Shown: piece by piece, positions 3,215-45,571 of the stretch
Position numbering within the stretch: the stretch's first letter is position 1
Layout of the letters: each line of letters opens with the position of its first letter
From: Folioceros fuciformis
Taxonomy: Eukaryota
NCBI GenBank assembly: GCA_049999805.1
Contig: JBNGIO010006142.1
Location: 113,493 to 159,314, forward strand
Length of the DNA: 45,822 nucleotides
Reading direction: 5' to 3'
Notes under the pieces: generated by a model
Seen by the model: only the letters and a program-made list of their open reading frames with translations
What the model was told of the DNA's origin: nothing
Database searches by the model: none
Translations under genes and position numbers: made by a program

Positions 3215-3470
3215 GGATGCCCCGGAACACAGTCTGGCAACGGCACAGGCGCAGCTTGCAGGATTCCACCACCTGAGGGTAAGATTGCTTGCAATTGCGA
3301 CGGAATCCCAAAACTTGCTCCCAAGAAACAAGGATTGTGTACAGCCTTCAGCTGTGTAGCACGTATCCCGATTCTGAGATCGAAATGGATGCGGAGGCAG
3401 CAGCGCTCGTGGGATGTGAGGAACTCGGGAAGCCTGCAATGTGATGAGAAAGGGCACAAGATGGGAGCCC

Positions 3471-3969: not shown

Positions 3970-4979
3970 TCAGAAAAGATGACTAATTGCTGAAGGGAGG
4001 AATAGAATCTTCAGCCTCCGTAAGTTGTTCTTGAGAATGGCTTGTAAGTGATGTTTGAAAGGGGTTAATACCTTTTTGGCCTTTCGCCCTACTTACTCAA
4101 TTGTTCCTCTTATCTTTGGAGTAGATGGACTTTTTTTTTTTCAATAATAGAAAATACAACTATGGCCTCAAGCAGGATGTGATCTAACAACTCTACTACA
4201 CTAGACAACTACTACACTAGACAACTACTATCTAACAACTCTACTACACTAGACAACTAGTACTGGCCGTCGAAGGCAAAATCTACTAGGTAAGGTGGTG
4301 TACCTTGTGCACAATTGGAATGTGGTATATTCTTCTTCTCTTCTTAGCAATTTCGATATTGCTAAATTGTTTGCATAAGTAGATCTCAAAGCAATGTAGG
4401 AGTACCACCTCATTCTTTGTTTCAAGTACTCTCCTAGTATTGTGAATTGGCAACTATTAGTCCCATCTCAGGAGCTTGTGAATATGTTGCATCACTTAGT
4501 GGAACATGTTGGAGATACTCCGTGCACTCAAGCACAACATGGATGCCATCACAACCAGAAAAGAAACTCAGATAAGTACGATGAGTAACTTGACCAACTT
4601 ATTGGTAATTAAAGATAAAGTTTGAGTAACATGGTGACCACACGCGTCACCCAGTCACAATGTATCTCACTAAAAACAAACAGGGAAGAAACCGGGCTCA
4701 ACAACTAGCCATAAAAATCAGGTGGCCAGGTGTCCCATGCTTCATGTATGACATCCCATGGCTTGTGCATAGGTATATGGTTTTGCATGGCACCGGCAAC
4801 CGGTGAAATAAAGCGGCACGGCAAGCCGTGAGTTATCGCCGCAAAAAACGGGCTAGCAATGCAGATCAAGAGCGAACTACTGTCCTTGTTCTACAGCGCA
4901 CACTATTACAATACTATACACAATATACGTATACGAAAACGCATATATCTTCAATAAAATATTGACTTGCGCCTGCCTG

Positions 4980-5611: not shown

Positions 5612-6600
5612 AGCATGCAATAATTAATGAAGATTGGAGAAAGAACTAAACACCCAAAGAGAAAACCTTGCATTGCAACCTCCTAATCACATGTACTCCA
5701 AAACGCACACAAAACACATCATTTTTGTTTGCCTTGCTAAGGCAAACAAAATGGTATATAGCATGCAACAATTAATAAAGACTGGAGAAAGAACTGAACA
5801 CCCAAAGTCAGGATGTGAAGAAACCCTTACCTTGTAGCATCTTGATCAAATGTGCTCCAAAACGCACATACAACACATCATTCTGTTTGCCTTGCTGAGC
5901 CAAACAGAATGGTGTACAACATGCAACAATTAGCGAAGACTGAACACCCAAAGTCAGGATGTGAAGAAAATCTTTTCTTGCAACATCCTGCTCAAATGTG
6001 CTTCAAAACGCACAAACAATACATCATTCTGTTTGCATTGCTGAGGGAAACAAAATGATATTCAAAATGCAAGAATTAGTGAAGACTGGGGAAAGAACTA
6101 AACACCCAAAGTCAAGATGCGAAGAAAACCTTTTCTTACATCATCCTGCTCAAATGTGCTCTAAAACGCACACAAAATACATCATTCTGTTTGTGTTGGT
6201 AGTAAGCAATACGGGGTGCATCATTTGGTAGTAANNNNNNNNNNNNNNNNNNNNNNNNNNNNNNNNNNNNNNNNNNNNNNNNNNNNNNNNNNNNNNNNNN
6301 NNNNNNNNNNNNNNNNNNNNNNNNNNNNNNNNNNAAATGTGCTCCAAAATGCACAAAAAGTACATCATATTATGTTTACATTGTTAAGGAAAAAGAATGA
6401 TATACAGAATGCAACAAATTAGTAAAGACTAGAGAAAGAACCAAAACGCACAAAAAATACATCATTATGTTTACATTGCTTAGGAAAAAGAATGGTATAT
6501 AGAATGCAACAATTAGTGAAGACTAGAGAAAGAATTGAACACCCAAAGTCAAGATGTGAAGAAAACCTTTTCTTGCAGCATCCTGCTCAAATGTGTATTT
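5612..6600 (+). repeat. About 150-bp satellite array, at least 6 diverged units, interrupted by an assembly gap
   Basis: AAGACT(G/A)GAGAAAGAACT(G/A)AACACCCAAAGTCA...CATCCTGCTCAAATGTGCT recurs near 5630, 5778, 5936, 6082, 6425 and 6519. Confidence 0.9.
6235..6334. other. Assembly gap (100 N)
   Basis: Run of N. Confidence 1.
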
Positions 6601-15164: not shown

Positions 15165-17437
15165 ATGCAGAGCTGCCAGTTCCTTGGCTCCCACAGGCCG
15201 GGAGTGGAGCGGTTGGCTCGCTGCACGCGATCGTATCATTTCCCTCCCAATTTGCACGAACAGGTTCGATCCAGGCAATTTTCTGGGAAGAACTGCGCTG
15301 TTCAGAACCGGGCCAATTCTACAGGCCAGGTGCAGCCGGGTAAGAAAGGTGGTTCAGAATCCATGGCCAGCGCCAGGCTTGATGTCCAGCTCGACAACTT
15401 TCTTGCCGCCCTTCAGCTGATTGTTCCCCCTCTGTCGAGTGACCGGCACAAGGGGCAGTCTGGTGAGATTGATTGTGAGTGGTGTCATTGGATTTGAGGG
15501 CGCTTGTTTGCGTGTGGAAGCCACTCGCTCACTTTGGAAATTGCAACAGGCAGAGTTGCGGTGTTCGGAGGGTGTAGGGAGTACACCGGAGCTCCGTATT
15601 TTGCAGCCATTTCAGCTTTGAAGATGGTAATTGAGGCTGATTACCTTTGTCGTGCTCTCCGTCCCGGGAGCGAGCTCAAGTGTTCGATGGGATGTGTATC
15701 AGGGGGCAGATTTGTCACACGTTTTCTGCGCTCAGGGTGCTGCTACAGTGATCAAAAGCTACAGTCCTGAGCTGATTGTGCATCCCGTTCTACCGGAGAG
15801 CTATGGGACTTTGGTGTACGAGACCCTCTGTCTTGCGTTTGGCTACAGCAGGTTGCAGAATTCCAAGGGGTCGTCTGACGGGCTTGACTTGCAGGGAAGA
15901 AGGAACCGCGCTGGGACAGGGCATTGAGGGCATTAAGAAATGGATGTCTAACTTCAATGGCATTGTCGTAGGTCCGGGACTGGGCAGAGAGCTGTCCCTA
16001 GTGAGCCCTATTTCTCTACTCCCCTCGTGCACTTTGCTTGGTTGCTGTTGATCGGCTTTCAAAGTTTGCGCTCTTGATTGACAGATTTCTTATTTTCATG
16101 CAGTCTGTCACGCCAGCAGTTATACAGCAGGCGAAGTCACAGGATATACCGATTGTGATTGATGGGGTTGGCATTTCTATGCTTCTGCTTCAGATTTGAG
16201 ATTCAGATGTGACCAGGCTAAGCTCCGAACAGCTAACAAACGTGCTTGACTTTGCTGCGAAGGATGGATTACATGCTGTTACAAAGGACTTAAGCCTCGT
16301 TCGAGGGTACTCGCAAGTGGTTTTGACTCCCAACTACAATGAGTACAAGCGGCTGGTTGCACAGGTTCTTGGGGGCAATGTGGATGAGGGAGTAGAGAAG
16401 GATCTTCCCGAACAAGTGCGGCTTGTAGCCGATCGGTCAGTACGCTGCAGCATGTGATCATATTGGAAACTACTCGTGTCACCATGTTCTGATGGTAGCA
16501 GGTTGGGTGTCTTCGGTCAGCTTGGGGGTGACGATTCTGAAGAAAGGTCCAACAGATATCATCAGCGATGGTAAAACAGGTTTGTCCTCCTGTGCCCNNN
16601 NNNNNNNNNNNNNNNNNNNNNNNNNNNNNNNNNNNNNNNNNNNNNNNNNNNNNNNNNNNNNNNNNNNNNNNNNNNNNNNNNNNNNNNNNNNNNNNNNAGA
16701 TGAGGTATCCTCTCCCCTCAGAACTTGATCAGGAACTGTCTGCCACTAATCAGCAACGAACGTCATGTCTTTCCTCTGCAGTTGTTGAGTCCAGCTTTTT
16801 TGGGTCACCTCGAAGATGTGGTGGGCAAGGGGATGTGCTGTCAGGCAGGTTTGTGTAGTCGAAACACAGCGACAGTTCAGGCAAAAGTTTCTTCTGGGTT
16901 TCGTCATGTCAGATTGTCTGCCCGTGAACTACTTTCTTACCAGTTCGACTTGACGGTTTAAAACCACTTGTCAGTGTCTGTGTTTTTACGAGCTGGGCGA
17001 AGCAGTACCTGCAGGCAGGAGCAGGTAGTCAGGATGCGAAGAAGTTGGAAGACAGGTACCCTGGACACATCACATGCTGATATCAGTGGTCGAATTACTT
17101 AGTCCCATGTGCACCTCATCTGGTCCACATGCTGGCATCGCATTTTCGTGCAGGGTTTCTGCGAACCCAGCCATAGTCGGTAGTCTCGCAGGCTCCATTT
17201 TAGTTCGGAAAGCAGCGCAAGAAGCATTTTCAAAGCACAGGCGAGGAATGGTAACCACCGATTTGATAGAGTTTCTCGCTCTCAGGTACGACTCGCTACC
17301 ATGGTGCCTTAGTCGTTGGGCATTAGATCAGTTTAAGGGGACTGAGGGGGGCGTTCGTTGTGTTTAAATGCAATCTGTTTACGATGTGGTTTCCTTATTG
17401 GTGTAGTATGGATGAACTGTTCCCTGCGACTTGCTGA
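15165..17437 (+). CDS. ATP-dependent NAD(P)H-hydrate dehydratase (NNRD/CARKD family), multi-exon
   Basis: [80 protein letters not shown]; last exon 17407-17437. Second in-frame Met at 15363. One intron contains the N gap. Confidence 0.93.
16598..16697. other. Assembly gap (100 N) within an intron of the dehydratase gene
   Basis: Run of N; the flanking exons join in frame. Confidence 1.
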
Positions 17438-23558: not shown

Positions 23559-26500
23559 CTACAAAAACTGCTGTAACCAGCCATTATCCTTGGCATCCTC
23601 ATCCAAAGCTGCTTTCAGTTTTGCTACCTCTTGTACTGCCTTCTCGGGATCCATTTTGTCGAGCGGTAAAGCGGCGAAATCTTGTAAGAATTTTTTAGCC
23701 CGTTGGGAGCTTAGTGTAATTTCATCACGACTGCAGACACGCTTTCGCTTCGAGCCAGCCTGTGAACAGCGTCAACAGACGTGATTCGTTAATACATTGA
23801 ATTTCTGACGACCTTTCATGAAAGCCAGATGTCGTCTTACCCCAAATACCATCTCATCATCCTTAGCTTGTGCAGTGTGATCGCGGGAAAAATTTTCAAG
23901 CTCGGCAGCTTTTGCTCTGGCAACAGCCAGCACTGCCTCTGGAAAATGAGCGTACTCAGCAACATGTATACCAAAACTTCGGTCGCAAGCCCCTTCCTCC
24001 ACCTGCCCACGAGAAACAACCGACATGAAACTACCAGATGTCCTTGCACATGTTTGAATCGTCTGTCAAAATTGGAATCAAATAGTACCTTATACAGCAT
24101 GACTAACTTCCCGGATTTTTCGTCTATCTCAGCTGTGACATGGTAGTTAGCCACACCTGAAGGTTGACTTAGAAATTGTTCTTCTGGATTGGCCATAGCA
24201 GTCAGTTCGTGAAAATGAGTTGCGAATAACGTGGGTGCTCGAGTCACCTCCACTATGTATTCACAAATAGCCCTCGCTAACCCTGTAGGTACACGCATCC
24301 ATTAAACTAGTGGAGCAGGAAACTTGTGCCGGAAAATATTTCGCTGAACGCATTCAAATAAAATAAGTCAACCTGATCAAGGACTTACCATATCCATCGT
24401 ACGTGGAAGTACCCCGACCGAGCTCATCGATAATGATCAAGGATCTGTCAGTAGCTGTTTTCAGAATTGCAGCTGTTTCCAGCATTTCTGCCATGAAGGT
24501 TGAAACTCCCCTCAGCTGCATCATCGGCACTACATAAGGAACTCCTGCACTTCTGCAGATGCGACTGCATCACGAAAAACAAGATTTTGCTGCACTCCTT
24601 TATCATGGACAAGCATTCGAATCTAGGATCATGGGTGCACCTGACAGTCCCCTGCTCCAACTCGAGCAAAGACACAATCACGGATGCTAATATCTGCACT
24701 TTCACAGGGCACAAAGCAGCCAACCTGAGCCAGTAAGACATTTACTCCAACCTGAAACACAAGACCAACAGTGGGGTCAGAAAATTGACTGCTTTACACA
24801 TCGTGACATTGCTGTTAAATCAGAACCCAGTAGGCTAACCTGACGAATGAATGTGGATTTACCGCCCATATTTGGACCTGTAACAATCTGAAACCAGCTC
24901 TTGCCCCTGACCTGTAGAAAGGGTACTAACAAACTTTATTTCCAGCACAAATGACGAAGCTGAAACTGATTACCATACAGGAATTGGAGAGGAAAAAAAT
25001 GTACCAAACAACAGTCATTGGGAATGAAGTTAACAGTTTCCTGTGCCTCAACACAGGGATGGCGACTACCTCTCAAAACAATGTCTCCTTCACTCTGCAA
25101 AATCCCAGAAAGGGTTAGCAGATAGTTCGCAGATAATGGGCAAAAGCAAATTTCACATCGCACAGTTTCACGTACCCCCAAAGTCATGGATGGCCGAGTA
25201 TATGGCGTCGGACTAGAAACGGCAAGGTCAGAAAAACTCAAGAGCACATCCATGTCGGCTAAAAGCGATGCAACGCCCTCAAATACCTGTACGCTTGAGT
25301 GTGTTAATCGAAGTGACTATATGCAAAAAAAAAAAGTTACGTCACCCAATCTGGCCAGAGCTCTCGGCCGAAGTGAGCGAGGAAAAACAGAAACTTGTAT
25401 GGACATATTATCAAAAGTCCTACAGGATATTACAACCTAACCAAACGGACCACAACAATGAGGCATTTGAAACAGCCAGCACGCTTGCCTTGCCATACAT
25501 CACAGTAGGAGTAGAATTAATGCACTCACTTCCACAAAAGTAGCTGCCACTTCGACCACCTTGTTTACAAGCTCTCGCTGGCGACTTGCATACTCCTCAG
25601 TCATTTGAGTGAACTGCTCACTTAGCCGTCTCAACTTTGAGCTTGTGAACTTTATACCATCCTTTCGCGTCTCCAGGGTAATATACTGAGAGCTAAGTTT
25701 TTTACGCACTTTCACCTCCTCCTTCTTGGTTATTCTCAAGACATAACCCCACTGAGAAGTTTTGTCCAACTTCAGCGTCTTTTCCGCTGAAAGATCCAGA
25801 TCATCGGCTGCTTGTTTGTGCACTGCCTGGATCTGACTTTCCACCTTATCTCTGGCTGCCTTCAGGTCCTGCAAACTGCTGTCATATCCTGGAGCTATCA
25901 TGTATTCACCCATTTCAAGTTGCTCTAAGTCAACAGCTGCCTCAACAAGGCCATCATACTTCCCAAGATGGTCAGGAGCAGTCCACACTTCCAGAGCTTC
26001 TGTGTAGCGCTTTTGCAAGTGTGACTGAAATTCACCTTCATAGTGGCTGAGCACATCCTTGATGAATGGCAACCTTATGCTTGCCTGTCCAAATGAAAGA
26101 CAGTGATAAGCCTTCAAGGAGACGAGATCAAACACCAATCCCTTTGGAACAAAGCTGGCACAAAACGCTGCAAAACACAAGCATCGCAATCCGACAGCAA
26201 AGGCACAACCAGGTAGCAGATTCACCTGGTAGAGCTTTACAACATCTTGCAGGCTAGCTTTCCGTCTCTCAATTTTCCGTATTAGCCGTTCAATGTCAGG
26301 AATCCGTTTTAGGTGTTGTCGCAGGTCCTGTCTCAGATCATTAGCCTCCACAAAGGCCTGCACTGTATCCAATCTCGAGAGAATGTCTTCAAGGTTCACT
26401 AGGGGTTGCTTTAACCAGTTCCTCAAGAGACGCTTCCCCATTCCTAAAGTGCACGTTCGGTTCATCAAACCGAATAAGCTGAAATACTTATTCACATCTG

Positions 26501-27880
26501 TCTTGCTCTCAAACACATTCAGCGCTCGCAAAGCAGCAGCATCCAGACGCATGTAAGTGTTGAGGCTGTATTGCTGGAAGACATACTTTCCATGATTGCT
26601 GTCATCAGAAAGTAGTTCCATGTATGCAATCAGAGCGGCAAGAGCTGTGCGTGCAACCACAGAACTATCCGCTATGTCTTTTCGCTGCTCCACAGGACCT
26701 TTCACTAGGCGGGTAAGATCCTGCTCCAAATCTTTGGCTTTGAACTGATTTCGCTTCCTTTCTGTCAGCAGTACGTTGCAACGTACTACAAGATCCTCCA
26801 GCTTCTTGCCTGCTAAATAGTTATTGTTGTCCTGGAGGGCAACACATTCTCTGCAGCCTAGTCCCACCATGGCTGACTCTAGGTTTGTGAATTGATCATC
26901 GTCAATAAACTCAGTCATGCCTAGAGTCCTTTTCGTGGTGTCAACATATGCTATACCAATGGAACGCTCATTGTCCTGGATGGTTGCACAGACAGCCATG
27001 ACAACAGGCGAATCTTGCATTTCATTGTTTGCAAAGAGAATATCCTCAAAGCTTCCCAGCTTTCCTGGGGTTCCTGATTTGACTAGTTTCCAATTTGATC
27101 CGCTTCCTTCATAGAGCTCTACAGTGTGGTCAATCCTCTCCAGCAGCAAATCACGGACAATAGTCTCAAGCATGGTTCTGCTGATGCTGATGCATTGTAG
27201 ACTGTCCGAGCCACTTCCAAGCCGACGAAGGGCTGACGTAGTCTTATAGTATTCATTCGCAATGAAAACAGCTTCGTCCCCATGAGCTGTATAGTAATCC
27301 TAGAAAACGTCCAACAGGCGAGTAAAATGATGAGGAATGAGGTGGCTGGTGTAGTACCAGCAGCACATGCAAAGGCAAAGGAAAGCCAACAGACAAACTG
27401 AACAATGCTAAGGGAAAGGACAGCTAATGCTGCCCGAGCATTTGCCAATTTAAGAGCCAATTACATATGCTGTAGTACCATACCTTGCGATCAAAGAATC
27501 GAATGACTTGACAATCCTGAAACAACGATTGCAATAAACAGTAAGGCGGCAGACAGAACTACATTGCAATGGAACGAAATTTTCCGGAGCCAGAAATTCA
27601 AGGCTTGCCTCCGGAAGCTTTCGAAAAAACCCTATGAATCCTTGAGCTTGCTTGGAATCTGAGCACACGTCAAAGGTCGCTATTAGGAAAAAAAAAAATC
27701 CAACCAGACTGCAGCCACCTATTCCTAACAAGACCAGATATTGCAGCCAGCGTGAATCTCTCTCCGCTGCAAACAGGGCCCGAATCTAGCTCACAATTTC
27801 AATACTCAAGCATGCCCATACACAATGTAGTTCTCACCTAATTTCAGTTCAGGCAACTTCGCTGCCTCATCGGATTCCAT
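23559..27880 (-). CDS. MSH2: DNA mismatch repair protein MSH2, multi-exon
   Basis: LPELKLD.KQAQGF, RFFDRK-DYYTAHG, Walker [45 protein letters not shown]; ends WLQQFL*. Intron 2 (27517-27608) is GC-AG. Confidence 0.97.
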
Positions 27881-28144: not shown

Positions 28145-28368
28145 CAATGGCCGGTTCCTTTCTGCTCCCATCAAATCCATGACCCGGCCCGGTTTCAACT
28201 AACCGTGATGCACATATGTACGTACATACACATACATCAGTTCTCAACTTCTCCGTCGCCGTCTTCTCTCCTGCCACGACTGGAATGCCGTTCCGTGGTT
28301 TCATTCGTAGGTCTGTACGAGCACACATATACTCCGTATTACTCACACGTATGAGACGAGCCTAGGAA

Positions 28369-30302
28369 ATGGCGACGTCGACGACCATGGACAAGGTGGT
28401 GGGCAGAAGCTGGCATGATCTGCTACGCGTTGCAGCCTTTGCAACTTGCATCAAGCTGCTGCTGGTGCCCAGCTACCGCAGCACTGACTTTGAGGTGCAC
28501 CGGCACTGGCTTGCCATCACCCACTCTCTCCCTTTCAGACAGTGGTACAGCGATGAAAGCAGCGAGTGGACGCTGGATTACCCTCCCTTCTTTGCCTGGT
28601 TCGAGAAATTCCTGTCTGTGTTGGGGCGGCTGGTGGACCCCAAGATGGTCGACCTCTCACAGGGCTCAAATTATGCCACCGATGAGGTGATTCTTTTTCA
28701 GAGGATCACAGTGATGGCAGCTGACGTGGTTTTGTACTACGGTGTTTGGAAATGTACTCGGGTTCTGTCCGATCCGCAGAGAGCTCTCGTCTATGTGGCA
28801 GTGGTGCTGTCCCCAGGGCTCCTCATGGTGGATCATATCCACTTTCAGTATAATGGGTTCCTTTTAGGAATCCTGCTCACCTCGGTAGGGTTCTTGACGG
28901 AGGGAAATGATGTGGCCGGGGCCGTCTCATTTGCTGTACTGGTGTGCTTCAAGCATCTATTTGCAGTCGCTGGACCAGTGTATTTTGTCTACCTTCTCAG
29001 GCACTACTGCAGGGGAAGAAATAAGGTGTCAAGGTTCTTCACTCTGGGAGCAGCGGTATTGTCTGTTCTAGGAGCTGCTTTTGGGCCTTTTGCCTATCAC
29101 GGACAGGTACAGGATCCTGGCTTTCTGTCCCTTGTCTCTGACTCGAAAATCAGTTGTTTGCGGCAGGTTTGTATATTTTAGACCTGTCTTGAGCAGATTA
29201 TGTGCTGAATCTGAGGCTGTAGGATTTTCCCTGTGTTTTGTGTATTCATTGACCTGGACCCGACAGATTGCTCAAGTACTCAAAAGGCTCTTCCCTTTTG
29301 GCAGAGGACTATGTCATGCTTACTGGGCTCCTAACTTTTGGGCTCTCTACAACATGACGGACAAAGTGCTGGGTATTGCATTTCGTAAACTGGGGTTTCA
29401 TGTGCACAGTGCAACGGCAGGCTTGACAGGAGGGCTGGTTGGCGACTTCTCGCCTTATGCTGTACTGCCACAGGTTCTCATCGTCCGTTGTCATACGTGT
29501 TGATTCTTCGTGTCTGTAGCAACCTGCTTCAGACTATGCAGCTCAGGTAACAACTTTTTGTGCAGGTCACTCCAGCCATGACCATGATCCTGGTTCTTTT
29601 GGCAATGCTGCCTTGTCTGATCAGGATTTGGAGGCATCCTATCGAAACAGAAGTTGTTAGGTGGATAACCTATGCGTACAGCTGTGGTTTCATATTCGGC
29701 TGGCATGTGCATGAAAAGGCATCCCTTCACATAGTTATACCTTTCAGCCTGATGGCTGTGAGGTCCGCCGGAGCTGCAGAGTCTTTCATCTTTCTATCCA
29801 CAGGTACGCCAACGCCCTTTCCCTTTCACTGGGAATACTGCCACTCTTCTTGCGGATAAACGTTTTTTGGTGTCGTTTTTGTGCTGCAGTATCGTACTAC
29901 TCCCTTTTCCCACTCCTCTTTGAAGCAAAAGAGTATCCTATCAAATTACTGCTTTTGGTTTTGCACACCTGGATCATCTGGCTTGCCTTCTCCAACTACT
30001 TCTCAACAAATTCAAGCCCCCATGGTGCCGATGCAAAAGATCGTGAAGCAGACGCTTCCAAAGAACCACAGCGGAACCTGGTTGACCCACAAGCCGGCAA
30101 GCTTGTGGGAACTTGTCAGCGTGCTTACCTTCTTGGCTTAATTGCGATTGAATGTTACAGCCAAGTGCTGCATCAGTTGTTGTTCAGGGAAAGATTGCCC
30201 TTCCTCCCTCTGATGCTCATTTCTGTGTACTGTAGCTTTGGCTTACTTTATTCTTGGGCAGAGCAGCTCTACGGTGTAGTCCGGTATCCGAAAGGCTATT
30301 AA
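28369..30302 (+). CDS. ALG8: Dol-P-Glc:Glc1Man9GlcNAc2-PP-Dol alpha-1,3-glucosyltransferase, 4 exons
   Basis: YRSTDFEVHRHWLAIT, WTLDYPPFFAWFE, VDHIHFQYNG, RLFPFGRGLCHAYWAPNFW, FGWHVHEKA, YYSLFPLLF; three GT-AG introns. Confidence 0.95.
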
Positions 30303-30692: not shown

Positions 30693-32264
30693 ATGGCGGC
30701 CTTGTTCCGAGGTTGCTCCGCGCTGCTACTCCGCTTTCCTTCTGTTCCGTCATCTACAGCCTGGGATGTTTGCTCTCCCACCGCTGGTCGGGCGCCCCAC
30801 CGAAGTTGTGGTCGACTCGTGACGCCGTTAGTTTGGGAGTGGGGGGAATTGAGCAGGAGGTGGCAGGGCCATGCATTGCCTTGGAGCAGAATAGTGCAGG
30901 CGCGAAATAGACCTAGGGGCAGGCTGATTGCCACAGCTGTGGCTGCGGAGGAAAGGAGGCGCTACCCTCAGAATGAAGACTTCGCGCCGGTGCTTCCCAA
31001 GAGGAAGAAGAAGCCGTATCTGAATGGTGATAAGCCGCAGAGGCGCAAGCAGAAAGGCAGGATGATGGCGATACTGAAGAAAATGGCTCCGAACAACGGC
31101 CTTCTTGTGAAAAATCTCATCCCCGTTGCACACGATGTGATGATGGCTAGAGCTACCGTCGTGGAAGGTGTCACCAGGCTTCTGACGGTTCATTCTGTCA
31201 AGGCTTGCAGGTACTTAGAATGGAAAGTGGAGCACTTATGTTGTGAAGGATTCCTCTTTGGAAGTGGCTTGGAAAGCGTCTAACCCGGTCTCTTCAGGTT
31301 CTGTCCAGAGGTTCATGTTGGACCAATCGGACATCTGATCAAAGACTGTCAAGGCATCAAAGCCAGCCGCAGGAGCGGGCAGCATGAGTGGTGCGCAGGG
31401 GAGATTTCGGATGTCATTGCTCCCGTGGAGTCATATCACATGTTGGACAGGTTAGGTCGGCCGGTGTCGCATGACGAGAGGTTCGATGTGGAAAGAATTC
31501 CTGCAGTTGTGGAACTTTGCATCCAAGCTGGAGTTGAGTTGCCAGGGTATCCTACTGTTAGGAGGACGCAACCTGTCCGCAGCACCGAGAGGTACCGGAT
31601 GTTCGCACCTCCTCCACCCGAGTGGACTGACGAGGCTATCGGACAGTCACCTTTACGGGTGTTGGAAAGGTCTCCACCTTCGGGGGATGAGGATGCGCAT
31701 TGGGAGGAGGATGATTCTGGAAGCGACAATTCAGACGAAGAGGATCCCGAAGCTATGCTAAGTCAAGTGTCACAAGACTCTGCTGAAGACGACTCCCATT
31801 CCATATTTCTCTCTTGGACTGAAGCAGACAACATTGAGGACGAGGACGACGTTCGCACCATAGCAACCAAGACTCTCAGAGCTTGGGAGAAGATGAGGAG
31901 AGGATGCCAGAGACTCATGTCCAGGTACCGTGTGCGAGCATGTGGATACTGCCCCGAAGTCCAGGTCGGACCACGGGGCCACAAAGCAAGAAACTGCGGT
32001 GCATTCAAGCATCAGTGGAGAAACGGGCAACATGGATGGCAAGCAGCTAGCCTGGACGAGCTCATCCCGCCTAAGTATGTGTGGCATGTAGTTGACATGA
32101 AAAATCCACTCCTCACCAATCACTACCGCAAGTTCTATGGACAGACTCCTGCTGTGGTGGAACTCTGCGCACAAGCTGGAGCAGACATTCCCGACGAGTA
32201 CAAGCCCAAGCTCCGGCTTGATGTCGTAATTCCTGACTTGGAGGAGATGGACTTAGTGGTTTGA
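30693..32264 (+). CDS. APO-domain RNA-binding protein (APO1/APO2-like, organellar intron splicing), 2 exons
   Basis: Transit-like N-terminus, QNEDFAPVLPKRKKKPY, two APO motifs (ACR-FCPEVHVGPIGH...PAVVELCIQAG; ACGYCPEVQVGPRGH...PAVVELCAQAG); intron 31211-31298. Confidence 0.92.
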
Positions 32265-35304: not shown

Positions 35305-36876
35305 TGTACTTTCTCCCCCTCTTTCCGTCCATTTTCTTGGTGGGTAGTTCGCACGTCACAGGAAGCGAGGGCTGTTTTGATCGGAATTTTCCGCCTTGTA
35401 GAATGTTTGGTGATTTTTACGTTGTATCTACGTCCCTAGGTATAACTAAAGGAGGTGACCGCCTGCTGCCGGTTGCATTACACTGTTGTTACAAGTCCAT
35501 GTTTGTATGACAATGAGTGATTGCTCGTCTGGGTTTGAACCCTAGACCAGCTTGAGGGCACGGCTTCTCTGACGGCAATGTTAAATTTTACTAGTGTCCC
35601 TTGCCGGAAACTGTGTGGTCACGTACATATGTACATAAAGGGGAATTCCGATTAAGATGAGGATAAGCGCGAGGCGTTTGACGTGGAGGCCGCAACCTTT
35701 GGAAGTAGCCCATATCCGAGGTGGCGATGTCGCCGGCCAACTGGCCAGCACGAGACAAAAACGAGGAGACTGAAGAGAATCCCAGACAGAGCAAATACTG
35801 TACAGTAGAGTGCAAGTGAGAGAGTGTGTGTGGTGAGGTTATAGCGTTGTTGTCGTCCGAGAAGAGGGGGAGGCGAAGTCTGGCCTGCATGCAATTTGCT
35901 ACACGATCTGCCAGCCTCGAACTCCGGTAGCTTCGCCGCAAGCCAATGCAACTCGATTCCCACCCTGGGCTCATGGCTGGAGCCTTCTCCTGAGGCGGCG
36001 ACATGAGAAGCCCGGGTGTGGGAGGCAGGAAGCGCGGAGTGCTCATCTGGTGGGGATCCTGGTCTGGTTCCGGTGCCGGGTCGGGGTCCGGGTCCGCTCC
36101 CGTCGCCTGGTCTGCTCGCTCCTTTGCTTGCACTGTCCAGTCTGCGCCCGCGGTGACGGTGTGGCCGATTCCTTCCAGACAGGAGGCGTTGCCTCCCGCT
36201 GCGTCTGCGTCGACTTCGGCGTCGGCGTCGGAGGTACTGGAGCTGCCTGCTTGGCCTGCATTGGGACCTTCGATTCTGGCCAGGGAAGATGGAATTTGAT
36301 GGATTGCGCGCGTGGTGTGGCAGGCTAGTACGCCTCAGCGCAGCAGGAAATTACGCACAAGGCGCACACCTCGGGTGGGCACTGGTCCGAAGGTGCCGTG
36401 TCGGTTCCTCTTCCTACTTGGTGTGGCGTGTGACAGACAGTAGCGGGTCGGATTTGACATGAATCTGATATTGTGGCAGGTTCTCGACTCAATTAGCTCC
36501 TCATCTGCCGGCTTGTCGGTGGAATCCCGCATAGCCCAATCTGTTGGGCCGACCGGGAGCTGCCCGGAGCGAGCGACTGGGTCGAGGGGGAAGAAGCCGA
36601 TTTTCGTTGTCTACAGACTGCCGAACGGGCGCACGCGCGAGCTCGTCCCCAATTCTGCACAGTCTCAGCAGCATCTTCCTTCATACGCACAAGTGATAGC
36701 CTCTTCGCCCACTGGTTTCGTGAGGAAGAGATTGTCTCGCCTGCTTTGCAAATTAAGGTGTGTTACTCGGTTTTTCGAACGGATGTGACATTGGCATTGC
36801 ACAGTTTTCTTCGTCCAGGAGGAGCTTGTATCTCACTTGTCGCCTGCGTGGATCAGGCCCTTGATTCGCCAGCACC

Positions 36877-39800
36877 ATGAGACTCTCACCTAGAGAGCTG
36901 GACAAGCTCTCGTTGCACCAGGCTGGCTTCCTCGCGCAGAAAAGGCTGGCCCGTGGCTTACAGCTGAACCACCCAGAAGCTGTTGCCCTCATTGCTACCC
37001 AGGTTAGCGCACTAGGTGCAGGTATCCAGGTAGAAGGGCAAGTTGCCGATTGGAATGGACTCTTTCTTTTCACGTTGACTGGCGGATTGGTGATATCGAT
37101 GTGCCTCATGGTCGTAGATCCTGGAGTTTATTCGGGATGGCAAGTCCGTCGCAGAGCTGATGGACACAGGACGACAATTATTGGGAAGGTATGCGCTCGC
37201 CCTATCTCAATTGGGAAGTGCTCCTTAGTGCTGCTGTCTACTCTGAACTTGACGTTATTCTGAATTTCAGGAGGCAAGTTTTGCCGGGGGTCAGGCATCT
37301 TCTAGAAACGGTGCAGGTATGCACAGCTTGGATTTGCGACGTCTTGTTAGAGCGTGCCTGTGCCATGGTCATGGTTTTTAAAATGACTCCCGTTTCAGGT
37401 GGAGGGAACATTTCCAGATGGGACCAAGCTGGTTACCATCCACAATCCTATTGCAAGGGAGGGTGGGGATCTCGAGCTTGCTTTGTATGGATCCTTTCTA
37501 CCAGGTCATGGCTGGATCCTTTTTCCTGTTGGACCTAATTCCACTTAAAGTTCGTCTACTGAACTCTTTTGTCCTTATTTTGGTTTCAGTTCCATCTCAG
37601 GACATTTTTCCTGTGTCAGAGGATACGCTGGAACCTGGTCGGGTAGTTCCAAAGCCTGGTCGTATTCTGATAAATGAACATAGAGAATGCGTAATTATTA
37701 AGGTTATCAATACAGCTGACCGCCCAATACAGGTCATTTCTCTTTTCTTCATACTGTGGAATCTCCTTGGACGATCATGTGCACCATTTTCCCAGAAGCT
37801 TTGACTTTTTGTTTCTTTCCTTTCAGGTGGGCAGTCATTACCATTTCATTGAGAGCAATCCTTATCTTATTTTCGATCGGGAAAGGGCTTATGGAAAGCG
37901 TTTAAACGTTCTGGCTGGTACTGCTGTCCGGTTTGAGGTATATTCCTTTTTCCTGTTTTATGGTCTCCCAGGGAGGAAGCAGTTGTTTGTAGGACGACGT
38001 TTCTGTGTTGAATGACCTAGCAATAGGCCTGAACGTAAGAGATTGGGGTCTGTTGAATTGATGCAGCCAGGTGACGAGAAATCAGTAGTTCTTGTCAGCA
38101 TTGGTGGCAAGAAAGTAATCCAGGGTGGTAATGGGTTAGCAAAAGGCCGTGTGGACAAATCTCATCTTCCTTCAATAATGCAGAGGGTTACCTCCAGAAA
38201 CTTTGGCCACAAGAAGCAAGCCGATGCCTGGTATGTGTAAAACCTGTGGCTGTCTGGTGTCGTGCACTGTCTCAAAACGTAGCCTGTCCTCCATTTTTGC
38301 TCTTACTCTATATGTTTAAATCGGAAAATGTTGATACTATTGTGTCTGCAGGATTGGTATTTCTGGGAAAGACGAAAAAGCAACTTGCTGGGTGTCTCGG
38401 GAACAGTATTCCCATCTGTTTGGTCCAACAACTGGTGACAAAGTGAGGCTGGGGGACACTGACCTTTACGCAGAGGTGGAGAAGGACTTTGCCATCTACG
38501 GGGATGAATGTAAATTTGGCGGAGGTAAGGTCCTTAGGGATGGCATGGGACAGGCTTGTGGATACACTGCAGCTATGACACTAGATGTTGCAATTATCAA
38601 TGCTCTCGTTATAGACTTCACGGGAATATACAAGGCAGACATTGGTATTAAAAGAGGGAATATAGTAGGAATAGGGAAAGCAGGTAATCCGGATGTGATG
38701 GATGGCGTTTCTGAGAACATGATTGTTGGTGTAAGTTGTGATCTTCAACGTCTTCTTTTTTCCCGTTTTTATGGTGAGTGGTCACTGAATATGGTGGCTA
38801 CGTTTTGACATTGAACGTTTGCCTCATGAAGGTCAACACTGAAGTGATAGCAGCAGAAGGATCAATTCTTACTGCTGGAGGTATCGATACTCACGTGCAC
38901 TTCATATGCCCACAGCTTGTGGAAGCAGCAATCTCCGCAGGTGAGATTAGAAGAAACTCAGATATGTTTTCGAGTCTGTGGCTCTCCTCACACTCACTCC
39001 CTGCACTGGAGTATATGGCTCCTGGAGACCGCTGAATACGGTGGATTTGGATTCATTTCTTCACCCTCCAACAATATCGTAGCCCTTCAACGGTTTAATT
39101 CTAGATTTGTGCAGGCTTAACAACATTGCTCGGTGGAGGAACAGGGCCAGCACATGGGACAGCTGCAACGACTTGTACACCTGCTCCAGAACAAATGCGT
39201 TTAATGCTTCGTGCAACAGATGACATTCCTCTGAACTTTGGGTTTACAGGAAAGGTGAATGAATAGCCTGGAAGTATAGTCGTGTTTTTGGTGTGTAGAC
39301 TCGTTTCAAAGAAACACTGACAGCAATAACGTTTCAGGGTAACTCTGCAAAACCGGAAGGGCTTGCTGATATTATCAGAGCTGGTGCCGTTGGTCTCAAG
39401 CTGCATGAAGACTGGGGCACAACACCGTCTGCTATCGAAAACTGTTTGTCAGTTGCCGATGAATTTGACGTGCAGGTCGGTCATGACTGAGTGGGGGCAC
39501 GATGTTTTGATTCGTGATCCTTGCGAGCTACTCTTGTTGACTTCCGTATGATCTGTGTACTGAAACTTGAAGGTAACGATCCACACCGACACTCTTAATG
39601 AGTCGGGATGCGTGGAGCAGTCAGTTGCAGCTTTTGGAGGTCGAACCATTCACACGTACCACAGGTGAGTCTTCCGTCGATTTTGTGTATGAAAGCCTTC
39701 CGTCGATTTCGTGTGAAACATGTTGCAGCTTGAACTGCCACACATATGCTTCTGAGTCGGGCGAGCGCGTTTGCTTTGAAAAGCTGATGTGATTGTGCCC

Positions 39801-41176
39801 TCAACAGTGAGGGAGCGGGTGGAGGACATGCACCAGACATCATGATGGTTTGCGGTTTACCGAATGTCCTTCCATCATCAACCAACCCAACCAGGCCCTA
39901 TACAGTCAATACGATTGATGAACATATCGACATGCTTGTAAGTATGTTTGATGTGCTTAGTACGTCTCTCCGGCCTGTTCGTGTGATTCAAGGTTCTTGG
40001 CTTTGTAGAAATTCATTCCGGCTCATGGACGTTTGTGGTTTTTTTATGTTCAGATGGTTTGTCATCACCTCAACAAGAGCATAGCAGAAGACGTCGCATT
40101 CGCAGAGTCGAGGATCCGTGGTGAGACGATAGCTGCAGAGGACATCCTTCACGACATGGGCGCCATCAGCATGATGTCATCTGATTCACAAGCCATGGGT
40201 CGCATAGGAGAGGTTGCATAGGAGCCCTAAATTGTCTGTGCAGCCAGCTCGAGGAAAACTCGTTATGTCGAGGTCTGCTCATCAGTTTGACATTGTTTCA
40301 GGTTATAACGCGCACGTGGCAGACGGCACATAAAATGAAGCAACAACGGGGACAGCTGCACGAAGCATCAGCTGATGACAATGATAATATGAGGATCAAG
40401 CGTTACATAGCGAAATATACTATTAATCCTGCTATTGCACATGGCTTTTCCGAGCTTGTTGGATCTGTTGAGGTGCGTACACCACTTGTTGAGCTTGATT
40501 TAGTGTGTGTCTCCACTTGCCTTATAAATAGGAATGAACATACGTTTTGTGAGTGCAGGTCGGGAAGCTTGCCGATTTAGTCTTGTGGAAACCCGCTTTC
40601 TTCGGGACTAAACCGGAAATGGTCATAAAGGGAGGAGTTATTGCCTGGGCTCAAATGGGTGATGCCAATGCAAGCATTCCAACTCCGGAACCTGTATGTG
40701 TCATTGTGCTTCGGCCTATTCGAAATGACGTCTTGATTCTCGTGGTCTCTATACTGCAGACGCTAATCTCTTGTTGATGAGACACATTGCAACAGATTTT
40801 GATGAGGCCAATGTTTGGAGCTTTGGGCAAGGCTGGGAACTCACATTCAATCGCATTTGTTAGCAAGGTATGGCTTATGTCTTGAACATTTGGGTCTGGT
40901 TGCAGTCAGGTATTTGGCGTAGGAATGCTGAACAGAAACTTGGTCATTCTGCAGGCCGCCAAGTTGTCCAATGTGAAAGCGGAATACGGACTTCAGAAGC
41001 GTGTGGAGGAAATACAGAATGTTAGAAATTTAACGAAAAAGGACATGAAGCTGAATGACTTAACGCCCGAAATTGTTATCGACCACGAACATTACACTGT
41101 ATCCGCAGATGGAGTGATGCTTACTTGCCACCCTGCTGCCACCCTGCCACTGACACAGAATTATTTTCTTTTCTAG
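36877..41176 (+). CDS. URE: Urease (single-chain plant type), 18 exons
   Basis: [48 protein letters not shown] (carbamylated Lys), [38 protein letters not shown], ends NYFLF*; 17 GT-AG introns traced in frame. Confidence 0.98.
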
Positions 41177-41194
41177 TGTAAGGATTCTGTTGCG

Positions 41195-42007
41195 ATGAGA
41201 ACTGATGCGGAGGATCGTACTGTTCTGGACGAAACTTCTCCTCCGGAGGGCCAAGGACCAGTTACTGAGGTACCTCATCCTGTAATGGGTACCTCGGCTA
41301 TAGCAAGGGGTGACAGTGACTTCAAACATCTTCCATTGGATTGGAGCGTATGGCAGCTGCTTGATTCCCTGCTACCAACAGGTGGATTTGCCCATTCCTA
41401 TGGCCTGGAGGTTGCTGTACAAACTCATCTGGTGGCGGATTCTAACTCACTGGAAGATTTCGTCACATCATCTTTGGAAGGAGTAGGTGCCCTGATGCTG
41501 CCTTTTATTTATTGTGCTCACAAGCAGCCAAAGACGGAGTCGTGGATTCAGTTAGACCAACTGTTTCATGCAACACTGACAAACCAGGTTGCAAGAAAGG
41601 CATCGTTGGCTCAAGGCGCTGCCCTTCTGCGAGTGGCTGGCACGGTGTTTGTAAATATTGCAGAGTTGCTGAACATACGTGCAACTGCTAGGGAGCCCGG
41701 GATAGTGCATGTCCATTACGCACCCATGTATGGAGTTTTATGTGGTCTTTTAGGATGGGATTCCATGACTTCCCAACGATCTTTCTTGTTTTTAACACTC
41801 AGGGATATTCTGTCAGCTGGGACGCGGTTGAATGTGGTAGGTCCTTTGGAATCAGCGTTCCTGCAGCACCGACTCTCTTCAGTTGCAGAAGCCGTCCTGA
41901 AGAAGTATGCAAATCGGCCAGTTGAAGACGCACATCAAACGTCACCTCTACTGGATACAGTGCAGGGCTGCCATTCTTATCTATTTTCAAGGCTCTTTGG
42001 CTCTTAG
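41195..42007 (+). CDS. UREF: Urease accessory protein UreF, single coding exon
   Basis: WQLLDSLLPTGGFAHSYGLE, ARKASLAQG, RDILSAGTRLNVVGPL, C-terminal HSYLFSRLFGS; alternative start at 41285. Confidence 0.95.
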   Translation: MRTDAEDRTVLDETSPPEGQGPVTEVPHPVMGTSAIARGDSDFKHLPLDWSVWQLLDSLLPTGGFAHSYGLEVAVQTHLVADSNSLEDFVTSSLEGVGALMLPFIYCAHKQPKTESWIQLDQLFHATLTNQVARKASLAQGAALLRVAGTVFVNIAELLNIRATAREPGIVHVHYAPMYGVLCGLLGWDSMTSQRSFLFLTLRDILSAGTRLNVVGPLESAFLQHRLSSVAEAVLKKYANRPVEDAHQTSPLLDTVQGCHSYLFSRLFGS

Positions 42008-43954
42008 CTGACGATCCTCGTGTTTCTTGGGAAGAGGTTGTGCGAACTGGGTGGTTTGTACCTTTTAGTTCTTGTGGGTCAACTTCTGCCAGGACTGTTA
42101 CAGGAATTTGCGGCTTTGCCTGCGTGCGCGAGATATTCAGGTGCTGCAGTTAGAGACGGCGGGTGTATATAACTGATACGTATGTACTTTGCGGTTGTTG
42201 GGTTTCAACTGATTCTCTCTGTCTTGACGCTTGCATGCTGAATCCGTTTGTATTTTTCATGTTGTCCATAATGCCATCGTGTCCGGTTATGGGTTGACGT
42301 GAAAGTTCGTGAACATTCCGGGATGCTAACGAATTCTTGTGTCAAAACTTCATATTGTTTGGAAGAGATCTTGATTGCTGTAGTTTGGTTCCTGGAACAG
42401 GACAAACACATTCAACACTAGTCCACGAATCTGCTTAGGCACTGCTCGGAAATATGCCAACCCCATGCCACACAAAGCTGAGGTTCTTGAGTTGTCTCTT
42501 TCTCCAATCGTTTGGGATCTGACTGCGTCCTTGTGTAGATACTGGTTGACTCTCTCCACCCGCGCCCCTCCTATCCTTAAACAGATCCTTGATCAAACAA
42601 TAAAAGTAAACAACATGATACTCTAGCATGCCATACCCGCCATTTTGGAGTTTGGCCAATGCAGGCAGGAGAAACGGGCATGCCAATGTGAAATGTTCCA
42701 AATATGAAATAGGTCTAAACGTGAAGTAATTGGCATGCATGAAATCAAGACCAAGCTGCAGCGGGGTTTGGTTGCGTAGGATTTCAAGGGGCATCTTTCA
42801 ATTATGAAGGAAGCTATCTTTAGTCTAAGCTAGAACGATGAGAAAAGCTCCCAGTTTTGTATAAGCCTTACCCTTCATACAAGCACGATGTTTTTGAACT
42901 TTGTGTTGGTGTTTATGTGTACCTTGGTCTTTGCATCTCCTATGCACTCTGGAGGTGGTGTGGCTCTAGAGTATTTTTCCTTCTTAAGGCCCGATCTCAC
43001 TCTAAGCATGAGGAGACTTAAACAGCCCATTAATCAAGTTCTTCCTTCAATTGCTTAATCCCATGACTTACACAAGTGCCTAAGTCTCTCAATGCAAAAT
43101 AATTTTCTAGATTCCTTGATATTAATGTAAGTAGCAAAGACCCACGATCGAAGATTAACTTAGAGTAATCCAATAGGTTAGGTCAAAAAGATTTAGATAA
43201 GCTGATTGGAGAAAAATAAGGGTATCGAACCCTAAACCCTAAACATATCCCATATGTTTATTAATCCTTTCCAAGTATTCTTGATTGTGCAACCCAAATC
43301 CATGTATCACTTGTCATGCTACAAGAGATCTTGCCTCTAAACGTCTAAGCCTCTCATCCTAAGACTATTCAACCCTGGTATACATTATACATATATACAT
43401 ACACACAGCATGAATTCATGTAAACATGAGGTGGCAAACCTCTACGTATATTCTTGCAATAGTGCACAAATGCTTTGCTTTCTTTCACAAATGCTTTCCC
43501 TTGGGTGCTTTCTCCCCGATGTGCACACCAAGGTTGCTAGTCATCTTTCCACTCTTTTGTGGCTCACTTCACATGAGATTGATGAAAGAAGCAGCTTCTC
43601 TACCCCTTTTCCTTCAATGTGAGAGAGTACTCACAATAAAATTACACACATTGTATTCACAAATGAAGTAATAAATTTGGAAACAATAGCCCTTTCAACA
43701 TGGACCCATGGGGCATTTGCATGTAATTTACGATTACAATCTTAAAGCAAAAGCTTCCAAACTCCTTCAATTTTGAGGAGATTTTGTTCTAATAAGCGAG
43801 ATTGCACAAACTTACAAGTTTTTCATCTCCACTATTTCAAAGACTAAATATAAAACTAATGCTTAGAAGTAGGTCTCCAAGCATAACATTTAGCAAACTT
43901 GTACATAATTCAAATTTGTACAAGGCTTACTTTCAGCTCTTGCAAATTGAGCCA

Positions 43955-45571
43955 TTACCCTTCCAATCTTTTCAACAATAGCAAAATGGCCGAATGCTGG
44001 GCTAATAACATTTTGGGCTGTGGGTCACCAACACACTCCATCTCACCAGTGTCAGGCACGTCAACACTCACCACAAAAGTAAACCTGCATTATTATATAT
44101 AAAAAAAACTATTTAGTAAAAACGAAAGATAAATATATTGGAATCCAAATTTCAAATCACTTGAAATTTTACTTCTTGCAATTTGGAGGGCCTTCTTCTT
44201 TAAAAAGTCTGATTTGGGGTTTTCCATAATTCATCCTAGAACAAAGTTTGTTCAATTTTTCCAAATCAGGTTGAATTGTCTGAAACAGTTGTCGTCGTTG
44301 CACATCACCTATAAGGAGTTCAATTAGATGACCTAGAACATAGAACATCTGTATGTGCAAAATAAAGTGTTAAAGTGAAGAAAAAGAGAGAGAAAAGAGT
44401 GAACATTACGACTTAATCTTGTCTTCCCCTTACAACTTGCTAAGTTCTAACACATTAGAAAACAAGGCATTAGTATTCTATGTTTAACTTTACAAACGTT
44501 TTTGAAGTGTTAAAGAGATTGACTAGAAGGTACCTGTAACTGTGGCAGTATCTTTTCTGCTAAGTTTGTACGTGCCATCTTTTGACTTGACAGGGGAAGT
44601 GATTTCTCCGTCAGTAAAGGATCATTTGGCCTGTTTGGATCAATTATATCTCCCACGGCTATCTTCAAGTTAGTTTTAGCCAAGTGCTCAATCGTTGTAT
44701 GAAAGATGATACCTTTCTCTTGACATGCCTCTTGGACAAGCCGAATTGGATTTATGGGGATATCTTCCACTTTAGAACTTGTGATACTTTGGACAAGAGG
44801 ATCTAAAATCACATGTATTTTCTCCTCGTCCAACAATACATCCAAAAATATTGCACCAATGACACTTTCAAAGTAGTCTGCGAAAACCTGAATCGAAGAA
44901 ACATCTATATCACTTCAATGTCATCTAACACAACAACAACATAAATTATCAAAGCTTTGAATCAAAATTGACCTGATGCCTTCTGGGACTCCCCCAAGTG
45001 ACGCTTGTTGTTCTTCTTGCATCAAGATCTTCGACAATCTCATGGAATTGGTCTATCCTGTGACTAAAACATTGTGCTATGCCCTTTTCCATAAATACAT
45101 TTGCCAAGTGTCCATTGTTTACTGCAGTCGCTCTCAAATCAGTTAATTTCCCAGAATCCTCATCTGGATGTGCTAGAATTAGATGCTTGGATACAAGGAA
45201 ACTAAGTATAGTGTCACCCAAAAACTCTAAGCGCTCCATGTACTAGAACCATGAAGATAAGTCTTGTTAATAATTTATGAATTATACTATAATAACAAAC
45301 CTAACGTATGAGTTTATGTAGTCAATTTGCCTCACAAACTATAACTTAAATAAAAGATAAACTATGCTTGTAAGGGAAATGCTAGAACATTAAAATTCAA
45401 ATAAATAAAATTAATAACCTGAATTTGTTGGTCATTTGATATTCCATAAATATCTTGTACAACGGCTCGGTGATGAAATTGATAATTCAATATACGCTCC
45501 AATTGCTGGACATCCCTTTCCACCTGCATAGATAGTTGACCATCTTCAATATGTTTTGCATCGTTTTCCAC
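43955..45571 (-). CDS. Diverged Dicer-like / RNase THREE-LIKE gene: RNase III domain plus two dsRBDs; 5' end unresolved
   Basis: Exons: LERILNYQF (to 45419); YMERLEFLGD...LTDLRATAVNN (45242-44973); VFADYFESVIGAIFLD...PIRLVQEACQ (44887-44534); LNKLCSRMNYGKP...EEGPPNCKK; FTFVVSV...ECVGDPQP...SA, stop at 43955. Splice junctions are in frame. Confidence 0.8.

Follow-up and report, generated by a model that had tools for sequence, protein, structure and literature searches.

The urease accessory gene ureF lies within the terminal exon of the urease gene in the hornwort Folioceros fuciformis

Nuclear genes of land plants are taken to be monocistronic, and an operon-like layout of urease and ureF, the gene for the nickel-loading accessory protein of urease, is rare among them. 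One such layout is found in a 45,822-nt stretch of the genome of Folioceros fuciformis (assembly GCA_049999805.1, contig JBNGIO010006142.1, forward-strand positions 113,493 to 159,314), here called the window, the positions of which are used throughout. The urease stop codon (TAG, 41174-41176) is separated from the ureF start codon (ATG, 41195) by 18 nt, the junction reading TTC TAG TGT AAG GAT TCT GTT GCG ATG. The question raised by this locus is how a second complete protein could be made from an open reading frame (ORF) placed directly behind another one of 2.5 kb. An earlier note, made from the sequence alone, had reported the coordinates of this junction, the common strand and frame and the 18-nt gap, all of which are borne out by the sequence and the ORF listing.

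The frame in which urease ends is open from stop to stop over 40886-41176; the open frame of ureF (41177-42007) begins at the very next base, with no change of strand or frame. The spacer between the two ORFs (41177..41194, + strand) consists of six codons with neither an in-frame stop nor an ATG, and the first ATG downstream of the urease stop is that of ureF, with a purine at -3. A shared frame alone is a 1-in-3 coincidence and means nothing by itself. Assuming about 25,000 genes, we infer that the chance of the next same-strand downstream gene being one of the three accessory genes of urease is about 1e-4. The two coding sequences are alike in GC3 (GC content at third codon positions), with values of 0.452 for urease and 0.428 for ureF.

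Spliced RNA contigs with both reading frames

RNA runs were compared as assembled contigs over positions 36000-43200, and one contig per species covers the locus. Run X1, which contains 0.81 of the sampled words from 40300-42400, provides a single spliced contig of 4,770 nt, all listed pieces of which are identical to the window. This contig lacks all 20 introns of the unit (17 coding and three in the leader, with GT..AG joints), and the length of the exon model matches it to the base. A second run, X2, from a related organism (organism B), provides a spliced contig of 4,048 nt with the same joints, diverged by 6-16% piece by piece. Judging from these intronless contigs, both runs represent spliced RNA. 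A spliced 4.77-kb RNA with both ORFs thus appears to exist in this species, and a similar one in a relative; the spliced contigs of two species span both ORFs, although a contig that covers two genes is no proof that they lie on one molecule. The earlier note had reasoned that the urease mRNA must run into ureF, and it does so in both contigs.

Over 40953-42631, the X1 contig aligns as one uninterrupted piece with neither differences nor gaps (0 of each), which takes in the last urease exon, the spacer, ureF and the 3' untranslated region (UTR). The terminal exon (40955..42631, + strand) is a single block of 1,677 nt in which the final 73 codons of urease and its stop are followed by the spacer, the entire ureF ORF and the 3' UTR. 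Since the 18-nt spacer has no room for a poly(A) site or a promoter, the overlap of the two units is obligate, and ureF sits inside the terminal exon of urease. A misjoin in the assembly, which would have removed the whole arrangement, is refuted, because the RNA contig crosses the junction with 0 differences and the same layout is found in the second species.

The 3' UTR (42008..42631, + strand; 624 nt) carries an AATAAA at 42599-42604, and the contig ends at 42631. Among the five kinds of poly(A)-type hexamers searched for from transcript position 3300 onwards, this AATAAA, at position 4738 of 4,770, is the only one, and it starts 32 nt before the end. These data fit a single poly(A) site shared by urease and ureF. 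The stretch 42748-43200 is covered by no RNA contig. Runs X17 and X18 gave fragments of 36-82 nt below 90% identity and were uninformative on linkage.

Urease, UreF and the conservation of their arrangement

The urease coding region (36877..41176, + strand) comprises 18 coding exons and 17 GT..AG introns of 82-174 nt, and ends with the TAG at 41174-41176. The exon boundaries were taken from the joints of the RNA contig and then refined to exact GT..AG sites. The coding sequence of 2,514 nt, with 25 in-frame Met codons, encodes a protein of 837 aa that aligns from end to end (residues 1-837, 0-5 gaps, blastp) with the ureases of Nothoceros aenigmaticus, a hornwort and the closest relative (82.5%, EukProt record P0123), Sphagnum fallax (76.1%, P0126), Selaginella (74.4%, P0133) and Calypogeia (70.4%, P0140). 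The exon at 38.3-38.7 kb matches the Pfam family Urease_alpha, the alpha N-terminal domain (E 3.5e-53). At the C-terminus (...NYFLF), the final amino acid pairs with the last of the 840 residues in the urease structures of pigeon pea and jack bean (4g7e and 3la4); since the protein is collinear with the final residues of solved plant ureases, the stop codon stands at the normal end of urease. Full-length collinearity and a canonical C-terminus are both features of a single-chain plant urease. The only Rfam match, to 5_ureB_sRNA (38540-38928, - strand; 52.4 bits, E 9.8e-12), a Helicobacter antisense RNA family, spans a plant intron and was rejected; it is almost certainly an artefact of urease coding conservation and not a plant sRNA.

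Upstream of the coding region, the leader (35800-36876) amounts to 801 nt with a GC content of 0.61, three introns and four upstream ATGs. These ATGs lie in leader exon 1 (35800..36233, + strand), which is GC-rich; the X1 piece 36000-36231 was aligned directly, and the start at about 35800 was inferred because the exon model then sums to exactly 4,770 nt. Leader exon 2 (36324..36392, + strand; 69 nt) accounts for 69 contig letters otherwise unplaced between records 4269 and 4339, in a bin (36241-36481) that is partly covered; it has GT..AG candidates, and 36329-36397 is an equally good placement. Leader exon 3 (36480..36757, + strand) is found in both runs, identical to the window in X1 and with 44 differences and three gap letters in X2. 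One of the upstream ATGs opens an ORF of 204 codons that overlaps the urease start out of frame; this ORF is of low complexity and showed no sign of coding. The long leader with upstream ATGs, together with the retention of exon 36480-36757 in the relative, suggests translational control of urease itself.

The ureF ORF (41195..42007, + strand) is 813 nt long, intronless, and encodes 270 aa plus the stop, with a second in-frame ATG at codon 31. The protein matches Pfam PF01730 over profile positions 1-150 of 151 (E 7.6e-24; 85.2 bits, cut-off 23.3), and its match to the Helicobacter pylori UreF structures is weak. In an alignment with 11 plant UreF proteins (48-57% identity), all 70 invariant columns and the C-terminal motif are kept; the first ~45 residues are variable, likewise in the other plant proteins aligned. 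The best match among plant UreF proteins is that of Taxus, at 62% identity (best 120 of 345 proteins at E <= 0.001), and no UreF closer than this was found among those 120 or among the best 150 of 1,919 relatives listed. Identity across plants is 50-62% for UreF and 70-82% for urease, i.e., UreF evolves faster generally. Judged from its sequence, ureF is a native plant gene, real and intact, and its conservation argues that UreF is functional and must be translated.

The protein collections contain no proteins of this species (neither urease nor UreF has a match of ~100%), and the missing hornwort UreF is no evidence on hornwort transcripts. The urease of Nothoceros (P0123) is present in them and a close UreF is unseen among the listed matches, which would fit gene prediction with one ORF per transcript hiding UreF. 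A search of metagenome contigs for UreF gave 56 pattern matches, none of which was confirmed.

In the relative, the X2 contig runs without a break over 40953-42167 and shows 156 differences; its one gap there, of 1 nt, falls at 42063, downstream of the ureF stop. No indel separates X1 from X2 in the spacer and ureF (831 nt), while three indel events are listed in 438 nt of untranslated X2 sequence; we estimate the probability of finding no indel in 831 nt at about 0.003. A decaying pseudogene is unlikely, since neither the spacer nor ureF has acquired an indel. The layout, the spacer length and the frame appear to be conserved in the relative, and the 40 difference rows listed, out of 290, do not include bases of the stop or start codon. 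Estimated from piece counts, the divergence between the two species is ~13% in ureF and ~8% in the urease exons.

In bacterial ure operons, structural urease and ureF lie on the same strand and the enzyme is coupled to its activator. Here, too, urease is directly followed by ureF on the same strand, whereas the 20 introns of the unit, the fused single-chain urease and the plant-type nature of both proteins set it apart from the bacterial operon. Ten large ORFs were tested, out of 74 in the window that reach 110 aa or more, and neither UreD nor UreG turned up among them. The locus is a pair, not a cluster, and is not a bacterial import. The argument made before from the 17 introns and the single-chain architecture, that a recent bacterial import is improbable, stands: both features are present in the gene model built from RNA joints (837 aa), and the nearest relatives of the two proteins are those of N. 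aenigmaticus for urease (82.5%) and Taxus for UreF (62%). We found no paper describing this urease-ureF arrangement in the PMC Creative Commons and bioRxiv listings, with subscription journals and supplements outside the scope of the search.

Possible routes to the UreF protein

The UreF genes of soybean and ten other plants are described as standing alone and as always having an intronless ORF (PMC3130180, citing Cao et al. 2010). Nine of these 11 genes are reported to have a 5'-leader intron, the removal of which eliminates upstream AUGs (PMC3130180). The hornwort gene resembles them in its intronless ORF (uninterrupted in DNA and continuous in the RNA contigs), its conserved protein and the AUG-free stretch before its start, the last 78 nt upstream of the ureF ATG being free of ATGs. 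It differs in that its leader is the urease gene itself: a non-coding leader exon and a 5'-leader intron of its own are not found, and the upstream sequence is the terminal exon of urease. In Marchantia and Klebsormidium, UreF proteins are annotated separately, and several UreF contigs of other plants measure 0.9-1.4 kb. In the urease clusters of 835-838 aa found only in Logan, the longest contig was at most 3,090 nt in 13 of the 13 listed, less than the minimum of about 3,250 nt that urease and UreF together would take up.

We put at about an even chance the interpretation that urease and UreF form one conserved, obligately overlapping unit in which UreF is made mainly from a nested, shorter RNA. 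Ribosomes finishing the 2.5-kb urease ORF would yield no useful amounts of UreF. Instead, most UreF would come from an RNA with its start towards the 3' end of the urease gene, perhaps in the last exon or close to it, a proposal that we regard as plausible but somewhat short of even. An internal start site is the ordinary eukaryotic solution for UreF, and the intron-cleared, AUG-free leader of ordinary plant UreF genes fits a protein that needs a clean leader. In an alternative nested form, which seems unlikely to us, a 5' leader exon would be spliced to an acceptor-like site at the urease stop, an arrangement that would imitate the leader intron known from ordinary plant UreF genes. In the long RNA, the role of urease 3' UTR would fall to ureF. 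Under the rules of nonsense-mediated decay (NMD), an intron downstream of a stop codon exposes an mRNA to junction-dependent decay; since ureF is intronless, there is no exon junction behind the urease stop, and the urease mRNA would be spared.

The site on which the leader-splicing form depends is a pyrimidine-rich run ending in TAG (41160..41176, + strand; 13 of 17 pyrimidines), which encodes YFLF and the stop and has a CTGAC ~25 nt upstream. With a matrix built from the 20 acceptors of this gene, the site at 41176/41177 scores -0.2 and ranks 111 among 261 exonic AGs. The resemblance to an acceptor is probably coincidental, the run being dictated by the conserved YFLF-stop codons. No joint from the leader to 41177 was present among the 15 RNA joints listed out of 26.

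Several observations weigh against a nested RNA as the main source of UreF. No such RNA was seen, one contig per species covering the locus. An abundant alternative junction would tend to interrupt the contig at 36757 or 41177, which is the case in neither species, a weak point given that contigs lose rare variants. A TATA-like hexamer is absent from 40955-41197. The last exon has six ATGs upstream of 41117, and a clean leader would need a start within the final 78 nt. The acceptor-like site does not outscore the usual exonic AG under the local matrix. In addition, an internal promoter alone leaves the 18-nt linkage and its conservation unexplained, for which a shared promoter is the better explanation.

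It is possible, if doubtful, that hornworts express urease and UreF from one obligately bicistronic nuclear mRNA by termination-coupled reinitiation. The 4.77-kb RNA would then be the sole carrier of ureF, with reinitiation at the ATG 18 nt on or at the in-frame ATG 90 nt further, or with internal entry, and the output of UreF would be tied to the translation of urease at a low, fixed ratio. An enzyme is required in larger amounts than its activation chaperone. The spacer, short and ATG-free, the first ATG after the stop being that of ureF and the purine at -3 all suit such a mechanism, as do the unbroken contig over both ORFs in each of two species and the one poly(A) region, and the relative has retained the close placement of these two functionally linked genes, as expected under selection for coupled expression. 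The stop and restart lie close together (18 nt), a trait of the viral termination-reinitiation (TURBS-type) sites, of which an upstream UGGGA motif and local structure that tether the 40S subunit are further features. However, no TGGGA exists in 40955-41197, and three window folds at the junction were no more stable than shuffles (z -0.23, 0.04 and +1.85); hence, both the motif and a tethering structure are missing. The fold with z +1.85, that of the first 146 nt of the last exon, is worse than its shuffles, so that access would be open. The 1.46 kb behind the urease stop should also draw long-3'-UTR decay, and we know of no cellular mRNA of plants on which ribosomes reinitiate behind an ORF of 2.5 kb. 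Of the two options offered by the earlier note, reinitiation or a promoter inside the urease gene, both are compatible with the contigs, but nothing positive was found for reinitiation. Nuclear bicistronic loci of green algae are described as having short first ORFs, depleted in AUGs, and as relying on leaky scanning, the median first ORF in A. protothecoides being 291 nt (PMC7896298, PMC11892635). The 18-nt spacer is a feature shared with them; here, though, the organism is a land plant and the first ORF has 2,514 nt and is not AUG-depleted, with 58 ATGs between the urease and ureF starts where shuffles have a mean of 45.7 (sd 6.3). The algal mechanism, as presented in PMC11892635, needs a short, AUG-poor first ORF, and leaky scanning, already held implausible in the earlier note, is excluded by the length of urease and the 58 intervening ATGs. 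In the hornwort, both ORFs are on spliced contigs, which does not imply exclusively polycistronic expression. The CDC26-TTM3 pair is mentioned as a bicistronic transcript of land plants (PMC11892635, PMC9768141) and is likewise a conserved two-protein nuclear transcript of the plant lineage. The upstream ORF of CDC26-TTM3 is small, whereas here the large enzyme comes first and its maturation factor second. Bicistronic readthrough RNAs of Arabidopsis, described for 271 loci, likewise have a second complete gene behind the first stop codon; they are reported as NMD targets with poorly translated second ORFs, and in seven of eight such RNAs the second ORF was rarely translated (PMC9768141). Those loci are described as neighbours with their own poly(A) sites and promoters, the long form being a by-product (PMC9768141), while the overlap found here is obligate and conserved.

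The remaining explanations depart from the nested-RNA interpretation in other ways. It is quite unlikely that separate overlapping RNAs, a urease RNA with its poly(A) site inside ureF and a ureF RNA starting inside urease, were merged by the assembler with no dicistronic molecule existing: a contig spanning two genes does not show one transcript, but none of the five poly(A) hexamers occurs from the last urease exon to model position 4738, and an identical merge would be needed in two species. We consider it very unlikely that the ureF ORF is silent and carried as the urease 3' UTR while an independent UreF gene does the work elsewhere. The analysis was confined to the window, in which case a second genomic UreF is conceivable, and ureF does diverge faster than the urease exons between the two species (~13% and ~8%). 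Against this stand the 270 intact codons, all 70 invariant columns and the lack of indels in comparison with the relative, and UreF evolves faster than urease in plants generally. Finally, the common frame and the six stop-free spacer codons would permit a urease-UreF fusion of ~1,114 aa if the TAG were read through or edited from U to C. Such a product is extremely unlikely: sharing a frame is a 1-in-3 chance, the T at 41174 is unedited in the RNA contig (0 differences over 40953-42631), and urease ends exactly where the solved ureases do. To our knowledge, TAG-TGT(-AAG) is not among the plant readthrough contexts. Among proteins of 474-2000 aa, the search for a fusion gave one match, P0122 of Apostasia (1,073 aa), in which UreF is attached to KH/RRM domains, probably through merged annotation, and no urease-UreF; nor was one found among the best 150 of 1,919 UreF relatives, the longest of which has 632 aa. 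By Pfam, eight longer UreF relatives include two UreD-UreF fusions, one protein with a C-JID domain and none with a urease domain. The UreD-UreF fusions (P0284 and P0379, 552 and 632 aa), found among distant UreF relatives, are likewise a eukaryote-style coupling of urease maturation genes, although they join two accessory proteins in one ORF, while here there are two ORFs and the partner is the enzyme. This fusion and the splicing of the leader to the stop-codon acceptor go beyond the options of the earlier note, and both are weak.

Genomic surroundings and meaning of the arrangement

The neighbours of the pair are ordinary plant nuclear genes. The 10 ORFs tested out of 74 include a PfkB kinase, a sugar transporter, a 2OG oxygenase, MutS, ALG6/8 and APO. 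The MutS-family mismatch-repair gene (23840-27299, - strand) has an exon ORF of 599 aa with MutS domains I-IV and a further exon with domain V. Upstream of urease lie an exon of an ALG6/ALG8 glycosyltransferase (28366-29178, + strand) and a protein with an APO RNA-binding domain (31284-32261, + strand). Two minus-strand ORFs of 120 and 134 aa (42438-42797 and 44513-44914) overlap or adjoin the end of the urease-ureF RNA; the latter had no Pfam match at E <= 0.001, and the common 3' UTR may border on a convergent gene. Genes are packed closely in the window, at a few kb per gene, and two runs of exactly 100 N (6235-6334 and 16598-16697) are assembly gaps.

With an enzyme and its maturation factor 18 nt apart on one spliced RNA contig in each of two species, the locus is a compact natural test case for the expression of a second long ORF. 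Gene predictors that assume one ORF per transcript will miss UreF here, and comparative studies could score hornworts, wrongly, as having lost urease maturation. Should the long RNA be the template for UreF, this would be a new plant translational mechanism and a tool for two-protein expression; we know of no cellular plant mRNA with termination-coupled reinitiation after a 2.5-kb cistron. If reinitiation is true, the ratio of enzyme to chaperone would be fixed at the level of translation. If UreF comes from a nested RNA, the locus would show a gene living wholly inside the terminal exon of another, and why ureF must stay intronless.

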